Source of the DNA: a virus | Length of the DNA: 25,960 nt | Reading direction: 5' to 3' (one strand) | UHGV virus genome: UHGV-0396296 | In this document: piece by piece, positions 6,618 to 13,514 of the stretch | How the letters are laid out: each line of letters starts with the position of its first letter | Numbering within the stretch: the first letter of the stretch is position 1 | The notes under the pieces: model-generated | Database searches by the model: none | What the model saw: only the letters and a program-made list of their open reading frames with translations | Told to the model about the DNA's origin: nothing | Made by a program: the position numbers and the translations under genes

Positions 6618-6821
6618 TCATTGACGAGCAAAAAAAATTTCTTCTACTGACGTACCGTAATATTCTGCAAGTCTTATTTTAATTTCATCACGCGGCACTC
6701 TTTCGCCATTTTCATACATTGACAATGCCGATGGGCTTATACCTGTTGCTCTTGCTACTTCCTCCTGGCTTTTGGCGCCTCGAAGTTTTACAAGTCTTTC
6801 GGATATTACGCTCTTGTCCAT
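6618..6821 (-). CDS. Cro-like XRE-family HTH regulator
   Basis: 67-aa ORF. SQEEVARATGISPSALSMYENGERVP is a canonical XRE HTH. Transcribed divergently from the CI-like gene, towards the replication genes. Confidence 0.7.
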   Translation of the reverse strand: MDKSVISERLVKLRGAKSQEEVARATGISPSALSMYENGERVPRDEIKIRLAEYYGTSVEEIFFARQ

Positions 6822-6847
6822 TGTTCTGCACCTCCTTTCACATCATG

Positions 6848-6925
6848 ATTATATCATTCGCCACAAATCGTGTCAACACATTTTGTGGACTTTTTCTTTA
6901 CTTTTTCCACGAATCGTGTTATTAT
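6848..6925. promoter_or_regulatory. Divergent switch region: consensus leftward promoter (TTGACA-N17-TATAAT on minus), weaker rightward promoter, and three operator-like sites
   Basis: Minus strand -35 at 6871-6876 and -10 at 6848-6853 with a 17-nt spacer. Direct repeats CCACAAATCGTGT (6861-6873) and CCACGAATCGTGT (6907-6919), plus inverted partner ACACATTTTGTGG (6876-6888). Confidence 0.5.
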
Positions 6926-6954
6926 TTGCGTACACCACATATGGAGGGATAGCA

Positions 6955-7266
6955 ATGTCAAAGTTTTCAACGGTTTTTAAAAATTTAAGAATCAATAACG
7001 GATACACGCAACAGGAGCTTGCTAATAGACTTGGCGTTTCACGCAGTGCCGTTGGTATGTATGAAAATGGTGAGCGTGAGCCTGATTTTGAAACGTTAGA
7101 GGCAATAGCTGATTTCTTTAATGTGGACATGGACTATTTAATGGGTAGGAGTAATAAAATCACAACTATCGCCGCCCACCATGAAGGCGAAGAATGGACA
7201 CAGGAAGAACTTGATGAGATAGAAGAGTTTAAGAAATTTGTGAAATCAAAAAGAGATAATAAGTAG
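6955..7266 (+). CDS. CI-like XRE-family HTH repressor
   Basis: ATG 6955 preceded by GGAGGG. YTQQELANRLGVSRSAVGMYENGEREP is an XRE HTH. Followed by an ImmA-like gene. The track ORF start at 6772 is upstream of the promoter region. Confidence 0.7.
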   Translation: MSKFSTVFKNLRINNGYTQQELANRLGVSRSAVGMYENGEREPDFETLEAIADFFNVDMDYLMGRSNKITTIAAHHEGEEWTQEELDEIEEFKKFVKSKRDNK

Positions 7267-7782: not shown

Positions 7783-8262
7783 ATGAGTGAATTTAATGAG
7801 AAACCTAAAAAGAAATTTTATAAGCGTTGGTGGTTTTGGCTAATAGTGGCCGTGGTAGTCATCGGCGTAGGTGGTGCCGCCGGGAGCGGCGGTGATGATC
7901 CTGCCGATACAAAAACAGCGCAAACCGAGCAAACAGAAGAAGCGACAGAGGCAACAGAAGCAACGGAAGCCCTCACGACCGGACAAAGAAATGCTCTCGG
8001 CTCCGCAGAGTCTTACCTTTCCGCTATGCCGTTCTCATATTCAGGGCTAATAGAACAGCTTGAATATGAAGGATACTCAACAGAGGACGCTACTTATGCC
8101 GCTGACAATTGTGGTGCAGATTGGAATGAACAAGCTGCGTTATCCGCAGAGGATTATTTGGATATTATGTCTTTTTCGCGCGACGGGTTAATAGAGCAGT
8201 TGGTATATGAAGGCTTTACGCAGGAACAAGCTGAATATGGTGCATCCGCTGTTGGTTATTAA
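7783..8262 (+). CDS. ltp: Ltp-family surface lipoprotein/membrane protein (superinfection-exclusion type)
   Basis: N-terminal TM segment WWFWLIVAVVVIGVGG, TEATEATEATEA linker, and two tandem Ltp repeats (AESYLSAMPFSYSGLIEQLEYEGYS...DNCGADWNEQA and AEDYLDIMSFSRDGLIEQLVYEGFT). RBS AAAGGAG. Confidence 0.75.
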   Translation: MSEFNEKPKKKFYKRWWFWLIVAVVVIGVGGAAGSGGDDPADTKTAQTEQTEEATEATEATEALTTGQRNALGSAESYLSAMPFSYSGLIEQLEYEGYSTEDATYAADNCGADWNEQAALSAEDYLDIMSFSRDGLIEQLVYEGFTQEQAEYGASAVGY

Positions 8263-8474
8263 GAATAACAAATAATGTAAAGCCATTTAAACGAAAAAAG
8301 GGGTATTGAGATTGTGGGTTGATAGCTTTCTGCAAACGACGTATATGATATTTTTTAACCGCAAATTAGTACTAAATTTCAAGAAAACAGTAATTTTTTT
8401 CTTGAATATATAAGTTTTTGTATATTATGCTAAACATTTTCAGCATTTCAATAACAAAAAAGTAACAATAAACA

Positions 8475-8503
8475 TTGACATTTTAAAGCGCTCAGCGTAT
8501 TAT
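8475..8503 (+). promoter_or_regulatory. Candidate promoter upstream of the Abi gene (TTGACA-N17-TATTAT)
   Basis: Hexamers read directly in an AT-rich intergenic region. Confidence 0.4.
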
Positions 8504-8516
8504 AATATTAACAGAT

Positions 8517-8580
8517 CCCGCTGGGCTTCTAGGATATCTTTGATATCCAAGCAAAAATACAGCGGGCCTTTTGCTTTTTT
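8517..8580 (+). terminator. Terminator-like hairpin in the leader of the Abi gene (outer stem CCCGCTG/CAGCGGG, inner GGATATC-TTT-GATATCC, then TTTTGCTTTTTT)
   Basis: Read directly. Lies between the candidate promoter and ATG 8596. Confidence 0.4.
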
Positions 8581-8595
8581 GGGAGAAACAAAGTA

Positions 8596-9501
8596 ATGGA
8601 TCAAAAACCATACAAAACAATTGATGAACAAGTTGAAATTTTAAAAGACCGCGGGTTAATCATAAGTGATGAGGATTATGCAAAACGGTGTCTTACTCAA
8701 CTCAATTATTATCGTTTAAGTGGCTATACTTTGACATTACGAAAAAATAATAGCTTTTACAAAAACATAACTTTTGAAAACGTAATGGATATATATAACT
8801 TTGATCGTCAACTTAAACTTTATGTGTTAAATTATCTTGAAGACATCGAAATATCGTTGCGTACTCACATAGGTTATATTTTAGGAAGCATGGATTCAGA
8901 CAAACCAGCGTATCTTAATGCTGGTTGCTATATAAGCGATGCTCATTACAACAGAGTCCTTGAAGAACTGAAGGATGCCCTTGCTGACAGTAAAAATGAA
9001 GCCTTTGTAAAGCACCACCAGACAAAATACCGCGGAAGCCTTCCTTCATGGGTAATGGTCGAAACATTATCGTTCGGAGCGCTTTCAAGACTCTTTTCAT
9101 CGCTTAAGCAAGACATAAAATGTGACATCTGTGATGCTTATTATAACCAAATCCGCCCACAAGTTGTTGAAAATCTTCTAGAAGGTTTAGTTGTTCTTCG
9201 TAATATATGCGCTCATCATTCCCGCATATATAATCGAGGCATCCCAAACACACCTAAGATGTCTAAAGTAGATAATGATTTTTTTATAGATAATGGATAT
9301 GAGCGAAATGAAATAGGAAAAAAATTATTCTTCAGACTCGTAATCATAGACCGATTGATAGAGGATGCTAATTTTTTAAGCAAAATGATATCTGATATAG
9401 ATGCATTGTCTTATAAATATCCTTTTGTTCAACTCAGGCATTATGGTTTTAAAGCAGACTGGAAAAACATGGTTTCAGAAATTAATAAACAATATAAATA
9501 A
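8596..9501 (+). CDS. Abortive infection protein, Abi_2 family (AbiD/AbiF-like)
   Basis: 301-aa ORF. KTIDEQVEILKDRGL, LNYYRLSGYTLTLR, HHQ...LPSWVMVETLSFGALSRLF and LRNICAHHSRIYNRG match recalled hallmarks of Abi_2 proteins. The gene and its upstream region are markedly AT-rich. Confidence 0.8.
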   Translation: MDQKPYKTIDEQVEILKDRGLIISDEDYAKRCLTQLNYYRLSGYTLTLRKNNSFYKNITFENVMDIYNFDRQLKLYVLNYLEDIEISLRTHIGYILGSMDSDKPAYLNAGCYISDAHYNRVLEELKDALADSKNEAFVKHHQTKYRGSLPSWVMVETLSFGALSRLFSSLKQDIKCDICDAYYNQIRPQVVENLLEGLVVLRNICAHHSRIYNRGIPNTPKMSKVDNDFFIDNGYERNEIGKKLFFRLVIIDRLIEDANFLSKMISDIDALSYKYPFVQLRHYGFKADWKNMVSEINKQYK

Positions 9502-9692: not shown

Positions 9693-10877
9693 ATGCCAGG
9701 AACGAAACAGAAACGAGGAACAGACAGCTGGACCCTGCACGTCAGAGCCGGCACTGATTTTAGGGGAAAGCCCATAAGATATACCAAAACAGTACACTGC
9801 AAAAGCGAAGCAGCTGCAGACAGGGAACTCGCCCTGTTTTATGCAGATTGCGTAAACGGCCGGGTCAACAGATCTACACCTATAACAGTAGCAGAGCTTG
9901 CCGACCAGTGGTATGAAGAGTACGTACTGCGGCACTTAAAGGTCAGCGCCCGGCGTGGCATAGATCCCGCCATAAAGATGTGGATAAAGCCACTACTTGG
10001 AAATAAGAAGGTTTCTAAAGTACAGCGCCTCGATGTGCAAAAATGGGTAAATTACGTTTCCGATCCGCAGGAGCGTACGAACAAGAGGGGCGAAAAAGTT
10101 ATAAAGCAGCTCTCCCCTAAGACTGTACGAAATTACTACTCTGCGCTTCGCGGTATGTTTGATTTTGCGGTCGATATGGGGATCATCGAGGACACTCCCT
10201 GTAAAAATATCCGTATGCCGAAAAAGGATCATAAAGAGGCCACCTACTTTTCTATAGAGGAAGTAAATGTCCTTCTAGAAGCCCTGAGCGCCTTACAGAG
10301 CGACGAACTGCGCTACAAGGTAGCGATTTACCTCGGGCTGTTTGGCGGCCTCAGGAAAGGTGAAATAATGGGATTAAACAGAGAGGATATTAACTTTGAG
10401 CGAGGCGAAATAGCAATCCGGCGTACAAGGATGATAAAACCGAAGGAAGGCGTCTACGAAGACACGCCCAAGACGGATAAATCCATAAGGACGGTCGCCC
10501 TACCTCCGGAGGTTATGGCAGAGATCCTGTGCCTGATCGCGCAACAAAAGGAGCAGAAACTGCAGCTTCAGAACCAGTACCATGACTCCCCTGCCCTGCT
10601 CCGTAACGACCACGGGGACCCACTGTACCCGCAGGTGCTGCAGAGGTGGTTTACCCGATTCCTGGAGAAAAATGGCTTACCTCACGCTGGCCTGCATTCT
10701 CTAAGACACACACACGCCTCAATGCTCGTATATCTTGGTACGGATAAAATGCAGGTCAGCTCCAGACTGGGTCACTCTCAGCTATCGACTACGCTAAATA
10801 TTTACACGCACTTATTTGAAAACGCCGACAAAAAAATAGCGGAAGATCTGTCATCGAACTTCCTAAAAGCTCGCTAG
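9693..10877 (+). CDS. int: Tyrosine site-specific integrase (phage integrase family)
   Basis: 394-aa ORF. C-terminal catalytic signature LFGGLRKGE...HSLRHTHASMLV...LGHSQLSTTLNIYTHL (R, H-x-x-R, Y). N-terminal SAM-like region. Confidence 0.9.
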   Translation: MPGTKQKRGTDSWTLHVRAGTDFRGKPIRYTKTVHCKSEAAADRELALFYADCVNGRVNRSTPITVAELADQWYEEYVLRHLKVSARRGIDPAIKMWIKPLLGNKKVSKVQRLDVQKWVNYVSDPQERTNKRGEKVIKQLSPKTVRNYYSALRGMFDFAVDMGIIEDTPCKNIRMPKKDHKEATYFSIEEVNVLLEALSALQSDELRYKVAIYLGLFGGLRKGEIMGLNREDINFERGEIAIRRTRMIKPKEGVYEDTPKTDKSIRTVALPPEVMAEILCLIAQQKEQKLQLQNQYHDSPALLRNDHGDPLYPQVLQRWFTRFLEKNGLPHAGLHSLRHTHASMLVYLGTDKMQVSSRLGHSQLSTTLNIYTHLFENADKKIAEDLSSNFLKAR

Positions 10878-11100
10878 TTGTTGTCATCATTGTTGTCATT
10901 TTGGCGAAATATGCCGAAATGTTGCGAAACGCGTTGAACGCTCAAAGCATTGAAATTTAAACGATTTGAATGATTTTGAAAATCGCCGAAATACCCTCAG
11001 AACCGATTCGAGTCCCGTGTCCTCCGCCAGCGAAGCCCTGTAATTCCAACGGTTGCAGGGCTTTTCATTTCCGTTTGTTGTCATTTTGTTGTCAATTTGA
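10877..11100. other. Candidate attP region: flanking direct repeats TTGTTGTCATTTTG, CGAAAT/TTGAA short repeats, and a tRNA-3'-end-like core
   Basis: Direct repeats at 10877-10904 and 11074-11099. Sequence TTCGAGTCCCGTGTCCTCCGCCA (11007-11029) resembles a T-loop, acceptor 3' strand and CCA. Integrase and lysis genes converge here. Confidence 0.35.
11034..11065 (+). terminator. Hairpin plus T-run (AGCCCTG...CAGGGCT TTTT) downstream of int
   Basis: 7-bp GC-rich stem followed by TTTT, read directly. Confidence 0.4.
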
Positions 11101-11140
11101 TTTTTACTGTTATTGCAATCGAAAAAACAATTCTGTATAA

Positions 11141-11172
11141 TAAAAAAAGAGCGGTGGCAAGTCCGCCCTCTT
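11141..11172 (-). terminator. Intrinsic terminator after the small minus-strand ORF
   Basis: Minus strand reads AGAGGGCGG-loop-CCGCTCT followed by TTTTTTT. Confidence 0.45.
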
Positions 11173-11189
11173 ATGTGTGTGCCTGTCGA

Positions 11190-11333
11190 TTATTCGGCAG
11201 GTTTTTCCTTTTTTGCCATCTCCCTAACGTCTTCGATAGCCTTCTTTACTTCGTCCATATCCTTACAGGCTGCGAATTTATCGGCTACCAAATTAAGTAT
11301 CACTTCCATCTGCTTATCCGTCATATTCTCCAC
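11190..11333 (-). CDS. Small hypothetical protein (about 47 aa; ...MTDKQMEVILNLVADKFAACKDMDEVKKAIEDVREMAKKEKPAE)
   Basis: Hand-translated. Below the ORF track length cutoff. AAGGAGG RBS 5 nt before in-frame GTG 11333 (ATG at 11324). Followed by a terminator. Confidence 0.35.
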   Translation of the reverse strand: MENMTDKQMEVILNLVADKFAACKDMDEVKKAIEDVREMAKKEKPAE

Positions 11334-11393
11334 AGCGCCCTCCTTTCTCCGCTTGCCCGGTTATTACCGTCCGGTTTCCCTTTCGGTAATTAT

Positions 11394-11422
11394 AATATAC
11401 ACTATTTTTTATATTTTGTCAA
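11394..11422 (-). promoter_or_regulatory. Near-consensus promoter (TTGACA-N17-TATATT) for the small ORF
   Basis: Read on the minus strand. Spacer is similar to those of the two promoters at 11707-11805. Confidence 0.4.
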
Positions 11423-11464
11423 TGTGTTTTTATATATTATTTTATATTTTTTATACTTTTTCGT

Positions 11465-11683
11465 TTATATTATAGGCTCGCCCGTTTCTTTGTCGATGAA
11501 TTGTATTCTCAGCTCTGCGTCGAATGCCTCCGCAATTTTTTCCAATTCAGACACCTTAAACGTGTTCCGTTTGTATTTATTGTTTAAATTCTGCGGCGTT
11601 TGTCCTGTACGCCGAGCAAGTTCCGCTTCCGACATATTTCCTCTTTTAACCCTACACAGATTTATATATTCTCTGACATTCAT
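11465..11683 (-). CDS. XRE-family HTH regulator (72 aa)
   Basis: MSEAELARRTGQTPQNLNNKYKRNTF is an HTH. GGAGGT RBS 6 nt before the ATG. Confidence 0.6.
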   Translation of the reverse strand: MNVREYINLCRVKRGNMSEAELARRTGQTPQNLNNKYKRNTFKVSELEKIAEAFDAELRIQFIDKETGEPII

Positions 11684-11706
11684 ATGCTGACCTCCTTCCT
11701 CTTTTG

Positions 11707-11735
11707 ATTATACACTATATTTTATAATATGTCAA
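11707..11735 (-). promoter_or_regulatory. Consensus promoter TTGACA-N17-TATAAT driving the HTH gene
   Basis: Minus strand -35 at 11730-11735 and -10 at 11707-11712. Confidence 0.5.
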
Positions 11736-11776
11736 AAAAAGAATTTAAATAATATAAAATATTTTATAAAAAACCG

Positions 11777-11805
11777 TTGACAGAATATAAAATTACGTGT
11801 ATAAT
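11777..11805 (+). promoter_or_regulatory. Consensus promoter TTGACA-N17-TATAAT driving the small acidic ORF
   Basis: Plus strand -35 at 11777-11782 and -10 at 11800-11805. Divergent from the promoter at 11707-11735. Confidence 0.5.
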
Positions 11806-11928
11806 ATAATCACAAGGTGAGATAAGGAGGCAATACCATCTCAGTAATGCACTGGGAACAGGTGCAAAAAGAGTTGACACTATAAATAATATATGGGATA
11901 TTGTAAAAAACAAGAGGAGGATAAAAAA

Positions 11929-12162
11929 ATGAAAAAGATGTTTTTAGAAAGTAACGGCTATAACATGATAGGTTTTATATTCGAAGATAATAAAATGGTG
12001 GCATTCGATTGCGAAACATTAGAAGACGCAAAGAATATGGACTGCTCGGGCGTGGAAGGCTGCAAGAGCGCAGAAGAAGCCGCTGTGGACTGCGATACCG
12101 AAGTTTATCCGTTTATTGAAGATGAGTGGGAAAACGTTACATTTATAGAGGAAATGGAATAG
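11929..12162 (+). CDS. Small acidic Cys-containing protein (77 aa), hypothetical
   Basis: ATG 11929 lies 8 nt after GAGGAGG. The track start at 11893 has no RBS. Protein is rich in D/E. Confidence 0.5.
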   Translation: MKKMFLESNGYNMIGFIFEDNKMVAFDCETLEDAKNMDCSGVEGCKSAEEAAVDCDTEVYPFIEDEWENVTFIEEME

Positions 12163-12203
12163 CATAAAAAATCCCCGGCCTTCGCCGGGGACGCTCTATT
12201 TTA
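12163..12203. terminator. Bidirectional terminator (CCCCGGC-CTTC-GCCGGGG hairpin with A-run upstream and T-rich downstream)
   Basis: Read directly, between convergent genes. Confidence 0.55.
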
Positions 12204-12552: not shown

Positions 12553-13296
12553 CTACACATTTATATGTACAGCATTACCCATACCCGTAGTATTGGCATA
12601 TGAATAGGCAGCGCCCAGATCGTATGCCTTGGCTACTACCTGTTTCCTTCCGTCCGCTGTATCACAGATGCCAGGAATGTAGATGTCGGCAGCCCTGCCC
12701 TTCATGTGGGTGGAATTAGATGCCCCACCTACCTGTTTGTTTCTCGTGGCACATCTCTGTCCAGATGTAATAGTTATTGGTTTCCCATAATATGCACGCA
12801 GATTTTCCAGCAGATTGAGCAGCTTAGATGACGTATCTCCCGCCGGATATCCGTTGCAATATTTACCGCCACACCCGCACTTGAACTCTGATTTTGCAAA
12901 ATGCGCCGAAGAACCGCCGGAAGCTGTGCCGGCAGAACCGGAAGAACCGGAACCGCTGCGCAGCGCAGCCCACGTTGCCTGTCCAGCGCATCCGTCGGCT
13001 GTCAGGCCCAGCTTTTTCTGTACGGTCTTTATAGCTGCTGCCGTCTTCTGCCCCAGAACGCCATCGACGGTCAGCCCCGCGCCGTATTTATTTAACAGCG
13101 TCTGCAACTCCTTCGTTACCGATACAGCCTTCGCATCTGTCTTAGCTCCCCAAATGCCATCTACCGACAGGCCATAGCCATTTTGGAATTTCTTTGTAGC
13201 CGCCTTTGTCTGGGCGCCCTCTATGCCATCCAGTGCGCCTGTATAATAACCATAGTTATATTTTAGAAAATACTGTCTGTATAAAACCGATATCAT
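12553..13296 (-). CDS. Endolysin: two peptidoglycan-binding repeats plus C-terminal peptidase M15 (D-Ala-D-Ala carboxypeptidase-like) domain
   Basis: Start ATG 13296 overlaps the holin stop and follows a GGAGA RBS. PG_binding-like repeats, GSGSSGSAG linker, and SGQRCATRNKQVGGASNSTHMKGRAADIYI...NAVHINV. The track ORF extends upstream in-frame but overlaps the holin. Confidence 0.8.
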   Translation of the reverse strand: MISVLYRQYFLKYNYGYYTGALDGIEGAQTKAATKKFQNGYGLSVDGIWGAKTDAKAVSVTKELQTLLNKYGAGLTVDGVLGQKTAAAIKTVQKKLGLTADGCAGQATWAALRSGSGSSGSAGTASGGSSAHFAKSEFKCGCGGKYCNGYPAGDTSSKLLNLLENLRAYYGKPITITSGQRCATRNKQVGGASNSTHMKGRAADIYIPGICDTADGRKQVVAKAYDLGAAYSYANTTGMGNAVHINV

Positions 13297-13514
13297 TACT
13301 CTACGTCTCCTTCCTGCAATTCCGGCAGGCTGACAATACTGTTCAACAGACTCAGCACGCCGGACAGTATCGACGCCGATACTACCATTTTCCAATCCAC
13401 CGCCGCAAATACCGCAGCCGTTCCTATAGTTGCGATGGCCGTCTGCGCTACCGTGCGGATAGCACGCATACCGGCCTTCTTTATCCACGTCTTAAATTTC
13501 TCCATGTCGTTCAC
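13296..13514 (-). CDS. Holin (small two-TM protein)
   Basis: 72 aa with two hydrophobic segments (AIRTVAQTAIATIGTAAVFAAV and MVVSASILSGVLSLLNSIV) and a charged C-terminus. Immediately upstream of the endolysin. Confidence 0.7.
   Translation of the reverse strand: MNDMEKFKTWIKKAGMRAIRTVAQTAIATIGTAAVFAAVDWKMVVSASILSGVLSLLNSIVSLPELQEGDVE

Follow-up and report, generated by a model that had tools for sequence, protein, structure and literature searches.

How is a group of very small genes at the edge of a gut prophage controlled, and what might these genes do? The question is raised by the virus genome UHGV-0396296, the whole stretch of 25,960 bp analysed here as the window, which is a temperate phage genome, a prophage of gut Clostridia. 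A cassette at 11145-12192 lies between the lysis genes and the attachment site (att), a location already given by a first-pass annotation of the sequence and found again in related phages. It carries the gene of a 72-amino-acid (aa) XRE-type helix-turn-helix (HTH) protein between the genes of a 47-aa and a 77-aa protein. All three genes are real, because they have many homologues and are under purifying selection. We propose, with a probability of about 55%, that the cassette is a repressor-gated accessory unit with burst-then-shut-off behaviour, resembling in its sequence organization the loci of anti-CRISPR-associated (Aca) regulators. The features on which this proposal is built are, in window coordinates:

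11145..11172, minus strand: 3' hairpin and terminator of the 47-aa gene, GAGGGCGG-ACUUGCCA-CCGCUCUU, then U7 (-13.2 kcal/mol, z -3.7)
11190..11333, minus strand: 47-aa protein gene, GTG start, Shine-Dalgarno sequence (SD) AAAGGAGG
11334..11393, minus strand: 5' leader of the 47-aa mRNA, with hairpins HP1 and HP2, then the SD
11360-11349, minus strand: HP2, loop GGCAAG (11357-11352), just upstream of the SD
11390-11363, minus strand: HP1, just downstream of the -10 hexamer, at about the predicted transcription start
11394..11422, minus strand: P1, promoter of the 47-aa gene, 11/12 consensus positions, TTGACA-AAATATAAAAAATAGTG-TATATT, the spacer being the operator-like sequence
11465..11683, minus strand: 72-aa XRE/Cro-C1-type HTH gene (PF13443 HTH_26; pI 8.9)
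11707..11735, minus strand: P2, promoter of the XRE gene, 12/12, spacer with the same operator-like sequence
11753..11768, no strand: perfect 16-bp A/T palindrome TATAAAATATTTTATA, read from the sequence, midway between P2 and P3
11777..11805, plus strand: P3, 12/12, same spacer motif, divergent from P2
11806..11873, plus strand: P3 leader, two hairpins (-14.3 kcal/mol, z -2.9)
11874..11902, plus strand: P4, promoter of the 77-aa gene, 10/12, TTGACA-N17-GATATT, TG-extended
11929..12162, plus strand: 77-aa acidic protein gene, start as in all homologues
12171..12192, both strands: bidirectional terminator serving the 77-aa gene (plus; -17.0 kcal/mol) and the end of the lysis operon (minus; -23.2 kcal/mol)

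The promoters carry the first part of the argument. A search of the window for TTGACA-N17-TATAAT with at most one mismatch returned five sites, compared with 0.18 expected from 100 shuffles, and a count of five was reached in 0/100 of them. Three of the five fall within 412 bp (11394-11805), and their 17-nt spacers, AAATATAAAAAATAGTG, TATTATAAAATATAGTG and GAATATAAAATTACGTG, agree at 12-14 of 17 positions, in line with the first-pass description of three near-consensus promoters with similar spacers. P1 and P3 have an 85-nt inverted repeat in common (76% identity), and P3 is 83% complementary to P2, the -35 hexamers of these two divergent promoters being 41 bp apart. The description of a back-to-back pair driving the XRE and 77-aa genes therefore holds for the divergent arrangement of P2 and P3 but not for the target on the plus strand, as the 77-aa gene has its own promoter, P4, 27 nt before its start, compared with 124 nt for P3. 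The third promoter, P1, does precede the 47-aa open reading frame (ORF), as had been stated.

We compared the spacers of promoters around XRE homologues of at least 70% identity, taken from all fetched loci. The spacer is conserved in 26 distinct promoters (10 own, 11 divergent and 5 downstream) from about 12 diverged XRE-A loci; their consensus is TTGACAnnATATAAAAAATAGTGTATAAT, and the 29-nt promoter sequence is kept across these loci. Ordinary promoters are not known to keep their spacer in this way. We read the shared spacer as the XRE operator, and XRE as the proposed repressor of P1, P2 and P3. The conservation across the 26 promoters supports the earlier suggestion of HTH binding to the repeated spacers. 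The ends of the conserved spacer form a weak dyad, ACA-N15-TGT, that overlaps the -35 hexamer and abuts the -10 hexamer, so that a bound dimer would exclude RNA polymerase. Since the spacer of P2 contains the same operator-like sequence, autoregulation of XRE is implied. The palindrome between P2 and P3 has TATAAAATAT in common with the spacer motif, a match that could be due to chance given its A/T-only composition; together with conserved A/T blocks upstream of P1 and P3, it may represent auxiliary operators or UP elements.

The predicted regulator itself is small. As annotated at first pass, it is an XRE HTH protein, matching PF13443 HTH_26 over residues 16-55 (31.6 bits, cutoff 22) as well as PHROG transcriptional-repressor families, and it consists of the HTH domain alone, without a sensor domain. 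Homologues of at least 82% identity form more than 661 protein clusters (clustering at 90% identity), and relatives in cultured phages reach at most 47% identity. The claim that each unit is closed by a terminator was borne out for the 47-aa and 77-aa genes, so that the promoter-ORF-terminator build applies to the outer units, but not for the XRE gene, after which we found no terminator: the stretch folds at -0.2 kcal/mol. In the lack of a hairpin there, P2 transcripts should read into the 47-aa gene. A role of XRE as excisionase was rejected, as homologues lie far from att and three sites are embedded in promoters. A link to Aca11 through a match in Streptococcus Javan630 was dropped as well, that match being located in a recombinase/resistance-gene region.

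Comparison of loci with the same regulator showed that the conserved recurrent partner of XRE is the 47-aa gene rather than the acidic protein. The cargo around the regulator varies on both sides. On the divergent side it comprises at least seven unrelated small proteins (77, 37-39, 45, 70, 101, 107 and 120 aa), and downstream a 47-aa protein, a 53-aa protein or a larger ORF. In the XRE-A cassettes without the 47-aa gene, the downstream operator-bearing promoter drives the 53-aa protein or the larger ORF, or is missing. In one group of loci (L066-L070) the divergent operator-bearing promoter drives a hydrophobic peptide of 37-39 aa (MQMDKKIGKLIKVVRALTQLALEVGTLIAVIKMVIESIN), which looks like a small membrane toxin or holin-like protein and has HigB/HigA-like and HicB-like genes nearby. 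The 53-aa protein downstream of XRE in L071 starts with MEEMGTDKQF and is a distant paralogue of the 47-aa protein, with the same promoter and the same 5' hairpin. A further distant paralogue (MSAYAMTDFQMAMIAEMFLDIIKSSKDLQEAEERIQ...) stands in tandem upstream of the 47-aa gene in L047. Together, these paralogues suggest that the 47-aa family may be broader than its 312 clusters.

Homologues of the 47-aa protein (74-98% identity) form more than 312 clusters at the same clustering threshold, and 41 species-level genomes were found to carry the gene. Codon changes point to strong purifying selection: pN was 0.12 and pS 0.84 (saturated), giving a pN/pS of about 0.1, and the median dN/dS was 0.07. 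The predicted structure is a two-helix hairpin (helices 6-21 and 26-42, pLDDT 79.5) of amphipathic, charged helices, the first of which is nearly invariant on every face; a fold search with this hairpin gave generic matches only. Scans of both the 47-aa and the 77-aa protein against Pfam, PHROG, NCBIfam and PADLOC returned nothing credible, and a tblastn search with the 47-aa protein found no match in INPHARED phages or PLSDB plasmids. The first-pass impression that neither small protein is recognisable stands, as neither matched a characterised family in these scans and the fold searches. PADLOC aligned residues 2-44 of the 47-aa protein weakly to model positions 2-44 of Csx21, which is associated with type III-A CRISPR (E 0.0078, 13.9 bits), probably by chance. 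The idea that the 47-aa product is a secreted arbitrium-like peptide was dropped, as no signal sequence was seen by eye and the grand average of hydropathy (GRAVY) is -0.67.

Two genomic contexts recur for this gene. One is the lysis/att junction of prophages. In the other, which includes the largest group of loci, the 47-aa gene lies behind an HTH gene in the Cro position, at the head of a long same-strand gene run that we read as an early operon. In gene-called contexts the order is an HTH_26 gene, a gap of 115-157 nt and then the 47-aa gene. A small same-strand ORF precedes the 47-aa gene in 97 of the 122 loci that extend far enough upstream. In 59 of these it encodes a member of one of four HTH_26 subfamilies, and the other neighbours include ribbon-helix-helix (RHH)-like proteins, a HicB-RHH fusion, an M78 peptidase and a bPH_3 protein. 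Behind every regulator the 47-aa promoter is near-consensus, and its spacer holds the motif found repeatedly upstream of the respective regulator: AAAATAGAC with an 82-aa HTH_26 protein, ATAAGGCACA with an RHH-like protein, ACATTAAAAnTAATGT with a 67-68-aa HTH protein and TATAACGTTATCGTTA with another RHH-like protein; ATCATGTA is a further example of such a spacer. When spacers were compared in a cognate/non-cognate matrix, pairs from the same family agreed at 13-17 of 17 positions and other pairs at 10-14. Given this exchangeable wiring and the variable cargo, the regulator-plus-promoter set would be a gate of general use, and the 47-aa gene one of its cargoes, gated wherever it occurs.

A second layer of conservation was found in the RNA of the 47-aa unit. 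Across 25 distinct leaders the mean folding z-score was -2.67, and for 19 of them at most 5% of dinucleotide shuffles folded as well. The stem sequence of HP1 varies among loci with its pairing always kept, and the pairs of HP2 are maintained via compensatory changes. As HP1 could not be aligned by MAFFT, its support consists of the per-sequence folding z-scores and not of column covariation. The HP2 loop GGCAAG is the exact complement of the loop CUUGCC (11161-11156) within ACUUGCCA of the 3' hairpin. In 77 distinct cassettes, both loop motifs were present in 46, the 5' motif alone in 4, the 3' motif alone in 2 and neither in 25 (Fisher test 6e-14, uncorrected for relatedness). Ten of these 25, from one clade, have a second complementary pair, GAGUAGG(U)/(A)CUUACUC, concordant in 10/10. 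Single deviations in the loops are mostly G-U compatible (L044, L057 and L063), and L052 differs from its close relative L058 by a C-G to U-A double change plus one new mismatch. In a per-locus shuffle test the 6-nt match was not significant in any one locus, and whole-UTR (untranslated region) pairing of the RNAduplex type was too noisy, so the evidence for the loop pair is its co-occurrence across loci. This co-occurrence and the second pair suggest that a kissing-loop contact between the 5'-UTR and the 3' end is probable. The stems are selected as RNA or as single-stranded hairpins; an inverted pair of DNA sites is a less likely alternative for the loop pair. Many of the 3' hairpins do not have a U-tract and are therefore not simply terminators.

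Neither the 47-aa leader nor the 3' hairpin nor the P3 leader matched Rfam 15 at gathering thresholds, and two matches elsewhere in the region were at chance level (E ~1-2). Most HP1 loops (~11381-11372 in the window, and in other loci) hold a GGA, as in AAAGGGAAACC, AAGGAAA and GGGAGA, and the SD holds another, presumably similar to the two-site arrangement bound by CsrA-type translational repressors. On the plus strand, a 10/12 promoter-like site (11113-11141) points towards the 3' end of the 47-aa gene and could yield an antisense RNA of ~60 nt with hairpins at 11145-11172 and 11181-11202 and a T-run. It lies outside the block conserved in the loci L005/L006 and is therefore probably window-specific or due to chance.

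The 77-aa gene is a different case. Its product is strongly acidic and contains Cys, as described before: pI 4.05, 21 D/E versus 5 K/R, a net charge of about -16 and four Cys, of which C28 and C55 are invariant. The gene is under purifying selection (pN/pS 0.13-0.37), and homologues are rare, with 37 representatives among 1.84 billion. The predicted structure is confident and beta-rich, but matched no solved or viral fold; tblastn against INPHARED phages gave no match, and longer proteins in which the 77-aa domain is fused to extra regions contain no Pfam domains. Homologous genes are found again between lysis genes and integrase or within clusters of small genes, in the neighbourhood of various small DNA-binding genes; in two loci (L001 and L010) they lie behind strong promoters with repeats in the spacer.

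The boundaries of homology delimit the unit. In L008, homology begins at 11867, at the -35 hexamer of P4, with a different gene upstream. P4, the 77-aa ORF and the terminator therefore constitute an autonomous cassette. Consequently, the acidic protein, which the first-pass annotation had set beside the HTH regulator as a possible pair, is not the specific partner of XRE but belongs to a separate cassette with its own promoter that stands behind another gene in L008. The 77-aa unit (11867-12192) has the attributes of a moron, namely its own promoter P4 and terminator, a G+C of 0.32 and presence/absence among related phages. Between P3 and P4, the P3 leader shows an SD-like AAGGAGG in the first loop followed by a 12-codon mini-ORF (ATG at 11847). 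It was found only in copies of the same phage and is possibly the remnant of a cargo gene start replaced when the P4/77-aa cassette was inserted.

The cassette as a whole is likewise exchanged as a block. Positions 11148-12179 recur at 98% identity in L005/L007, next to a different integrase on one side and an insertion sequence (IS) element plus a CHAP lysin on the other. The breakpoints fall in the two terminators, the 11145-11172 hairpin on the left and 12171-12192 on the right (homology to 12179). The IS elements (rve / HTH_Tnp_1; L005 5318-8042, L007 1152-3876) lie exactly at the right boundary of the module, the insertion point in the sister phage being between the 77-aa terminator and the lysis genes. 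The G+C content is 0.32 in the cassette region compared with ~0.48 in the flanks, and 10880-12200 showed no DNA similarity to cultured phages.

Among known systems, the closest likeness is to the Aca11 loci of Streptococcus prophages, where Aca11 represses promoters upstream and downstream of its own gene via inverted repeats between the -35 and -10 hexamers (PMC12282945). Those loci too consist of a small HTH regulator among small cargo genes with strong promoters on both sides, in an accessory prophage region where the cargo varies between homologous loci (PMC12282945). The counterpart of the inverted repeat between -35 and -10 is seen here as a sequence motif only, conserved in the promoters of the cargo and of the regulator itself. 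The present locus differs in having a third, self-directed promoter (P2), and neither payload is like a known anti-CRISPR (Acr), the 47-aa protein being far more conserved and widespread than known Acr families. Aca-like regulatory logic is thus a good analogy. This part of the first-pass comparison with an Acr/Aca-type pair of HTH and acidic protein holds, but the recurrent partner of the regulator is the 47-aa gene. A small DNA-binding regulator beside small variable cargo genes in a mobile element is present, as in Acr-Aca loci, but the cargo has neither homology nor structural likeness to known anti-CRISPRs or DNA mimics, and the cassette is no more than a putative member of the Acr-Aca class.

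Other systems resemble parts of the cassette. In the Listeria locus marked by acrIIA1, the HTH protein reportedly autorepresses the locus promoter, as described by Rauch et al. in 2017 and Osuna et al. in 2020, and AcrIIA1 is said to have an extra C-terminal Cas9-binding domain. Both have a conserved HTH marker and exchangeable small genes in accessory DNA of temperate phages of Firmicutes, but XRE is an HTH domain only, and the sequence search of XRE against solved structures, AcrIIA1 presumably among them, gave no match. The 77-aa and 47-aa units are like the morons of lambdoid phages in that each has a promoter and a terminator to itself, is low in G+C and occurs in some related phages but not in others; the differences are that the units here are putatively wired to a dedicated repressor via operators inside the promoters, and that the 47-aa unit has a conserved UTR structure. 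The hok mRNA folds back through 5'-3' pairing. As in hok and in other mRNAs, a short conserved complementarity here links the 3' end of a small mRNA with the sequence that directly precedes its SD, a setting in which mRNA stability or translation would be affected; here, however, both partners are hairpin loops, the geometry would be that of a kissing loop, and the 6-8 nt of pairing are deduced from co-occurrence and the second complementary pair. In Firmicutes, pairing between the 5'-UTR and 3'-UTR has precedents in icaR (PMC3868564) and hbs (PMC5737220), to which the same likeness and difference apply. AcrIIA22 loci (PMC8545432) have only the theme of a hypervariable prophage end in common with the cassette. 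In the literature, we found no described equivalent in prophages of Clostridia.

From these data, we propose the following mechanism. The cassette would be a self-contained, horizontally exchanged unit run by its own small repressor. An XRE dimer would bind the ~21-bp pseudo-dyad ACA-N15-TGT that fills the 17-nt spacer of P1, P2 and P3, and thereby repress three promoters: P2 in front of its own gene, P1 of the 47-aa gene and P3, which serves the divergent cargo. Entry of the DNA into a cell free of XRE, by infection or through the rise in copy number after induction, would lead to a burst of expression, followed by shut-off and low autoregulated expression in the lysogen. Such behaviour is expected because all these promoters come close to a perfect match and one of them produces the repressor itself. 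Aca-type regulators have been found by experiment to follow this logic. The 47-aa helical hairpin would most likely act on a conserved host or phage component, and the 5' hairpin and complementary loops of its mRNA probably control stability or translation. The 77-aa protein would be the product of a later-inserted, independently promoted cassette. Comparison of sequences shows the promoters, the conserved motif in their spacers, the modular exchange, the purifying selection and the RNA hairpins, whereas binding and repression by XRE, the timing, the contact between the loops and a possible role in counter-defence or host takeover are inferred.

Several observations weigh against this proposal. 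The putative operator is A/T-rich and its dyad symmetry is weak, and A/T-rich non-cognate spacer pairs score 13-14/17. P4 does not have a clear operator copy, so the 77-aa gene may escape control by XRE. About one quarter of the 47-aa loci have no small same-strand ORF immediately upstream, and some of the upstream neighbours are not obvious DNA-binding proteins. A sequence search of XRE against solved proteins, including any solved Aca, gave no match at E <= 0.1. Sequence and fold searches gave no link between either payload and known anti-CRISPRs, DNA mimics, toxins or antirepressors; the structure prediction and fold search proposed at first pass for the two small proteins thus yielded no DNA-mimic or Acr fold. 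Finally, typical anti-defence proteins are much less conserved and have a much narrower distribution than the 47-aa protein, for which a core host or phage target therefore fits better than a role as inhibitor of CRISPR or restriction.

Four other explanations were considered. Under lysogenic conversion, the resident prophage would express the genes to the advantage of its host, for example by superinfection exclusion or a change in physiology, and XRE would only tune the level. The end of the prophage between the lysis genes and att is the classic site of morons, the outer units have their own promoters and terminators and low G+C, and the same phage has defence genes expressed in lysogeny, an Ltp-type superinfection exclusion (Sie) gene and AbiD. 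However, operator-filled consensus promoters with an autoregulated repressor predict low steady-state expression in the lysogen, the largest group of loci has the 47-aa gene behind a Cro-position HTH at the head of a putative early operon, and both payloads are devoid of signal peptides and membrane segments (GRAVY -0.67 and -0.36). We regard lysogenic conversion as unlikely, albeit worth keeping in view. A gated toxin is a weaker candidate and appears improbable. The 47-aa protein would then be toxic, like lambda Kil, a peptide of likewise 47 aa, or like the toxin of a toxin-antitoxin (TA) system, and would be kept off by repression and hok-type fold-back pairing of its mRNA. The repressor-controlled promoter in every context, the complementary and co-occurring loops (46 with both versus 4 and 2 with one; 10/10 for the alternative pair) and the antitoxin-like neighbours (HicB-like and RHH-like DUF6290 families) would agree with this. 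Yet the protein is hydrophilic and its charged, amphipathic helices include no membrane helix, unlike the small hydrophobic membrane toxins of type I systems, and the candidate antisense promoter at 11113-11141 is absent from L005/L006, leaving no conserved antisense RNA gene. Type II pairs do not show the 115-157-nt gap to the regulator gene (131 nt in the window) and the separate promoter, and one and the same toxin cannot be bound and neutralised by all of the unrelated neighbours, behind which the 47-aa protein keeps an identity of 75-90%.

A secondary immunity or antirepressor switch such as immI of P22 (Mnt, Arc, Ant), in which XRE would silence a 47-aa antirepressor or induction modulator until a signal arrives, is very unlikely in our view. 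Here too, a second divergent promoter region with shared operators and a small repressor lies remote from the main immunity region with its CI-like gene (6772-7266), equivalent loci have HTH- or RHH-type repressors, and tight gating of the 47-aa gene is seen throughout. However, if the 47-aa protein were an antirepressor, it would be expected to change along with its target, and its constancy therefore counts against such a switch: it is 75-90% identical across phages with unrelated main repressors (HTH_3 alone, HTH plus M78 peptidase, or S24 LexA-like). Moreover, no antirepressor homologue was found, neither payload having an ANT, KilAC, Bro-N or other antirepressor domain. As to chance, that is, A/T-rich intergenic DNA resembling promoters plus spurious small ORFs, the region is indeed A/T-rich and relaxed promoter-like matches are only modestly enriched in the window (12 versus 7.2 +/- 2.8 expected). 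The strict matches (5 versus 0.18), the 29-nt promoter conserved across diverged loci and the many homologues of all three ORFs under purifying selection refute this explanation, to which we give practically no credence. Going beyond the repressor-gated cassette, one may combine the data into a bolder joint reading. The 47-aa gene would be the core of an undescribed, widely mobile phage cassette, composed in order of a promoter with exchangeable operator, a 5' hairpin, a 5'-UTR loop, the ORF and a 3' hairpin with the complementary loop, that delivers a conserved effector acting on a core host function in gut Clostridia. Kissing-loop pairing of the 5'-UTR with the 3'-UTR would close the mRNA, and the 77-aa protein would be a new counter-defence fold, for example a DNA mimic. 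As a whole, this combination is tentative and rather doubtful.

The surrounding phage genome provides the setting of the cassette:

6772-7266, plus strand: CI-like HTH_3 repressor gene
7783-8262, plus strand: Ltp-type superinfection-exclusion lipoprotein gene
8596-9501, plus strand: Abi_2/AbiD gene
9693-10877, plus strand: tyrosine integrase gene, directly upstream of the attP region
10878..11099, no strand: attP region, with TTGTTGTCAT arm-type repeats, a tRNA-3'-end-like core and a hairpin
from 12196 on, minus strand: PHROG_4105 gene, M15 endolysin, r1t-type holin and structural genes

The cassette is placed next to attP on account of the integrase gene, four TTGTTGTCAT repeats and a tRNA-3'-end-like stretch ending in CCA. 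The repeats (at 10878, 10890, 11075 and 11086; repeat families D5 and D9) flank the core at ~11005-11030, which ends with ...GATTCGAGTCCCGTGTCCTCCGCCA; inside them, between integrase and cassette, lies a stretch with the end ...TTCGAGTCCCGTGTCCTCCGCCA plus the hairpin. From its sequence, we read 10878..11099 as a putative attP carrying a tRNA 3' end; the core end presumably resembles tRNA-Ser. ARAGORN found no full tRNA in the window, and neither attB nor the full tRNA was recovered from metagenomes, where the sole match was the same phage in the same form. Two defence-type genes, the Ltp-like Sie lipoprotein and AbiD/Abi_2 (7783-9501), are situated between repressor and integrase in the lysogeny module, and a further near-consensus promoter (8475-8503, plus strand) lies upstream of the Abi_2/AbiD gene. 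Another one (6848-6876, minus strand) is inside the 5' part of the listed CI-like ORF, whose TTG start at 6772 is therefore probably too far upstream. Within 12553-13514, the listed endolysin ORF (GTG at 13488) shares sequence with the holin gene (13296-13514), which is read in another frame; as homologous lysins have 247 aa, the true start is probably near 13296.

Regulatory cassettes of this uncharacterised type are very common in prophages of gut Clostridia. Few uncharacterised gene pairs are commoner than XRE/47-aa in the prophages of Lachnospiraceae from the human gut and of related Clostridia; the pair comprises hundreds of clusters at 90% identity and is absent from the collections of cultured phages and plasmids searched. 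The exchange of operators around a single conserved gene and the complementary 5'/3' mRNA loops were unexpected. If the proposal is true, the cassette would provide a compact set of repressor, operator and promoter for organisms without genetic tools, and XRE together with the 29-nt promoter signature would flag variable cargo on both sides, giving a guilt-by-association handle on counter-defence or host-takeover genes in gut phages. Few 5'-3' UTR interactions are known in bacteria, and the complementary loops would be a further example, from a phage; the 47-aa gene would be a natural case of one gene re-wired to many unrelated repressors via operator exchange.

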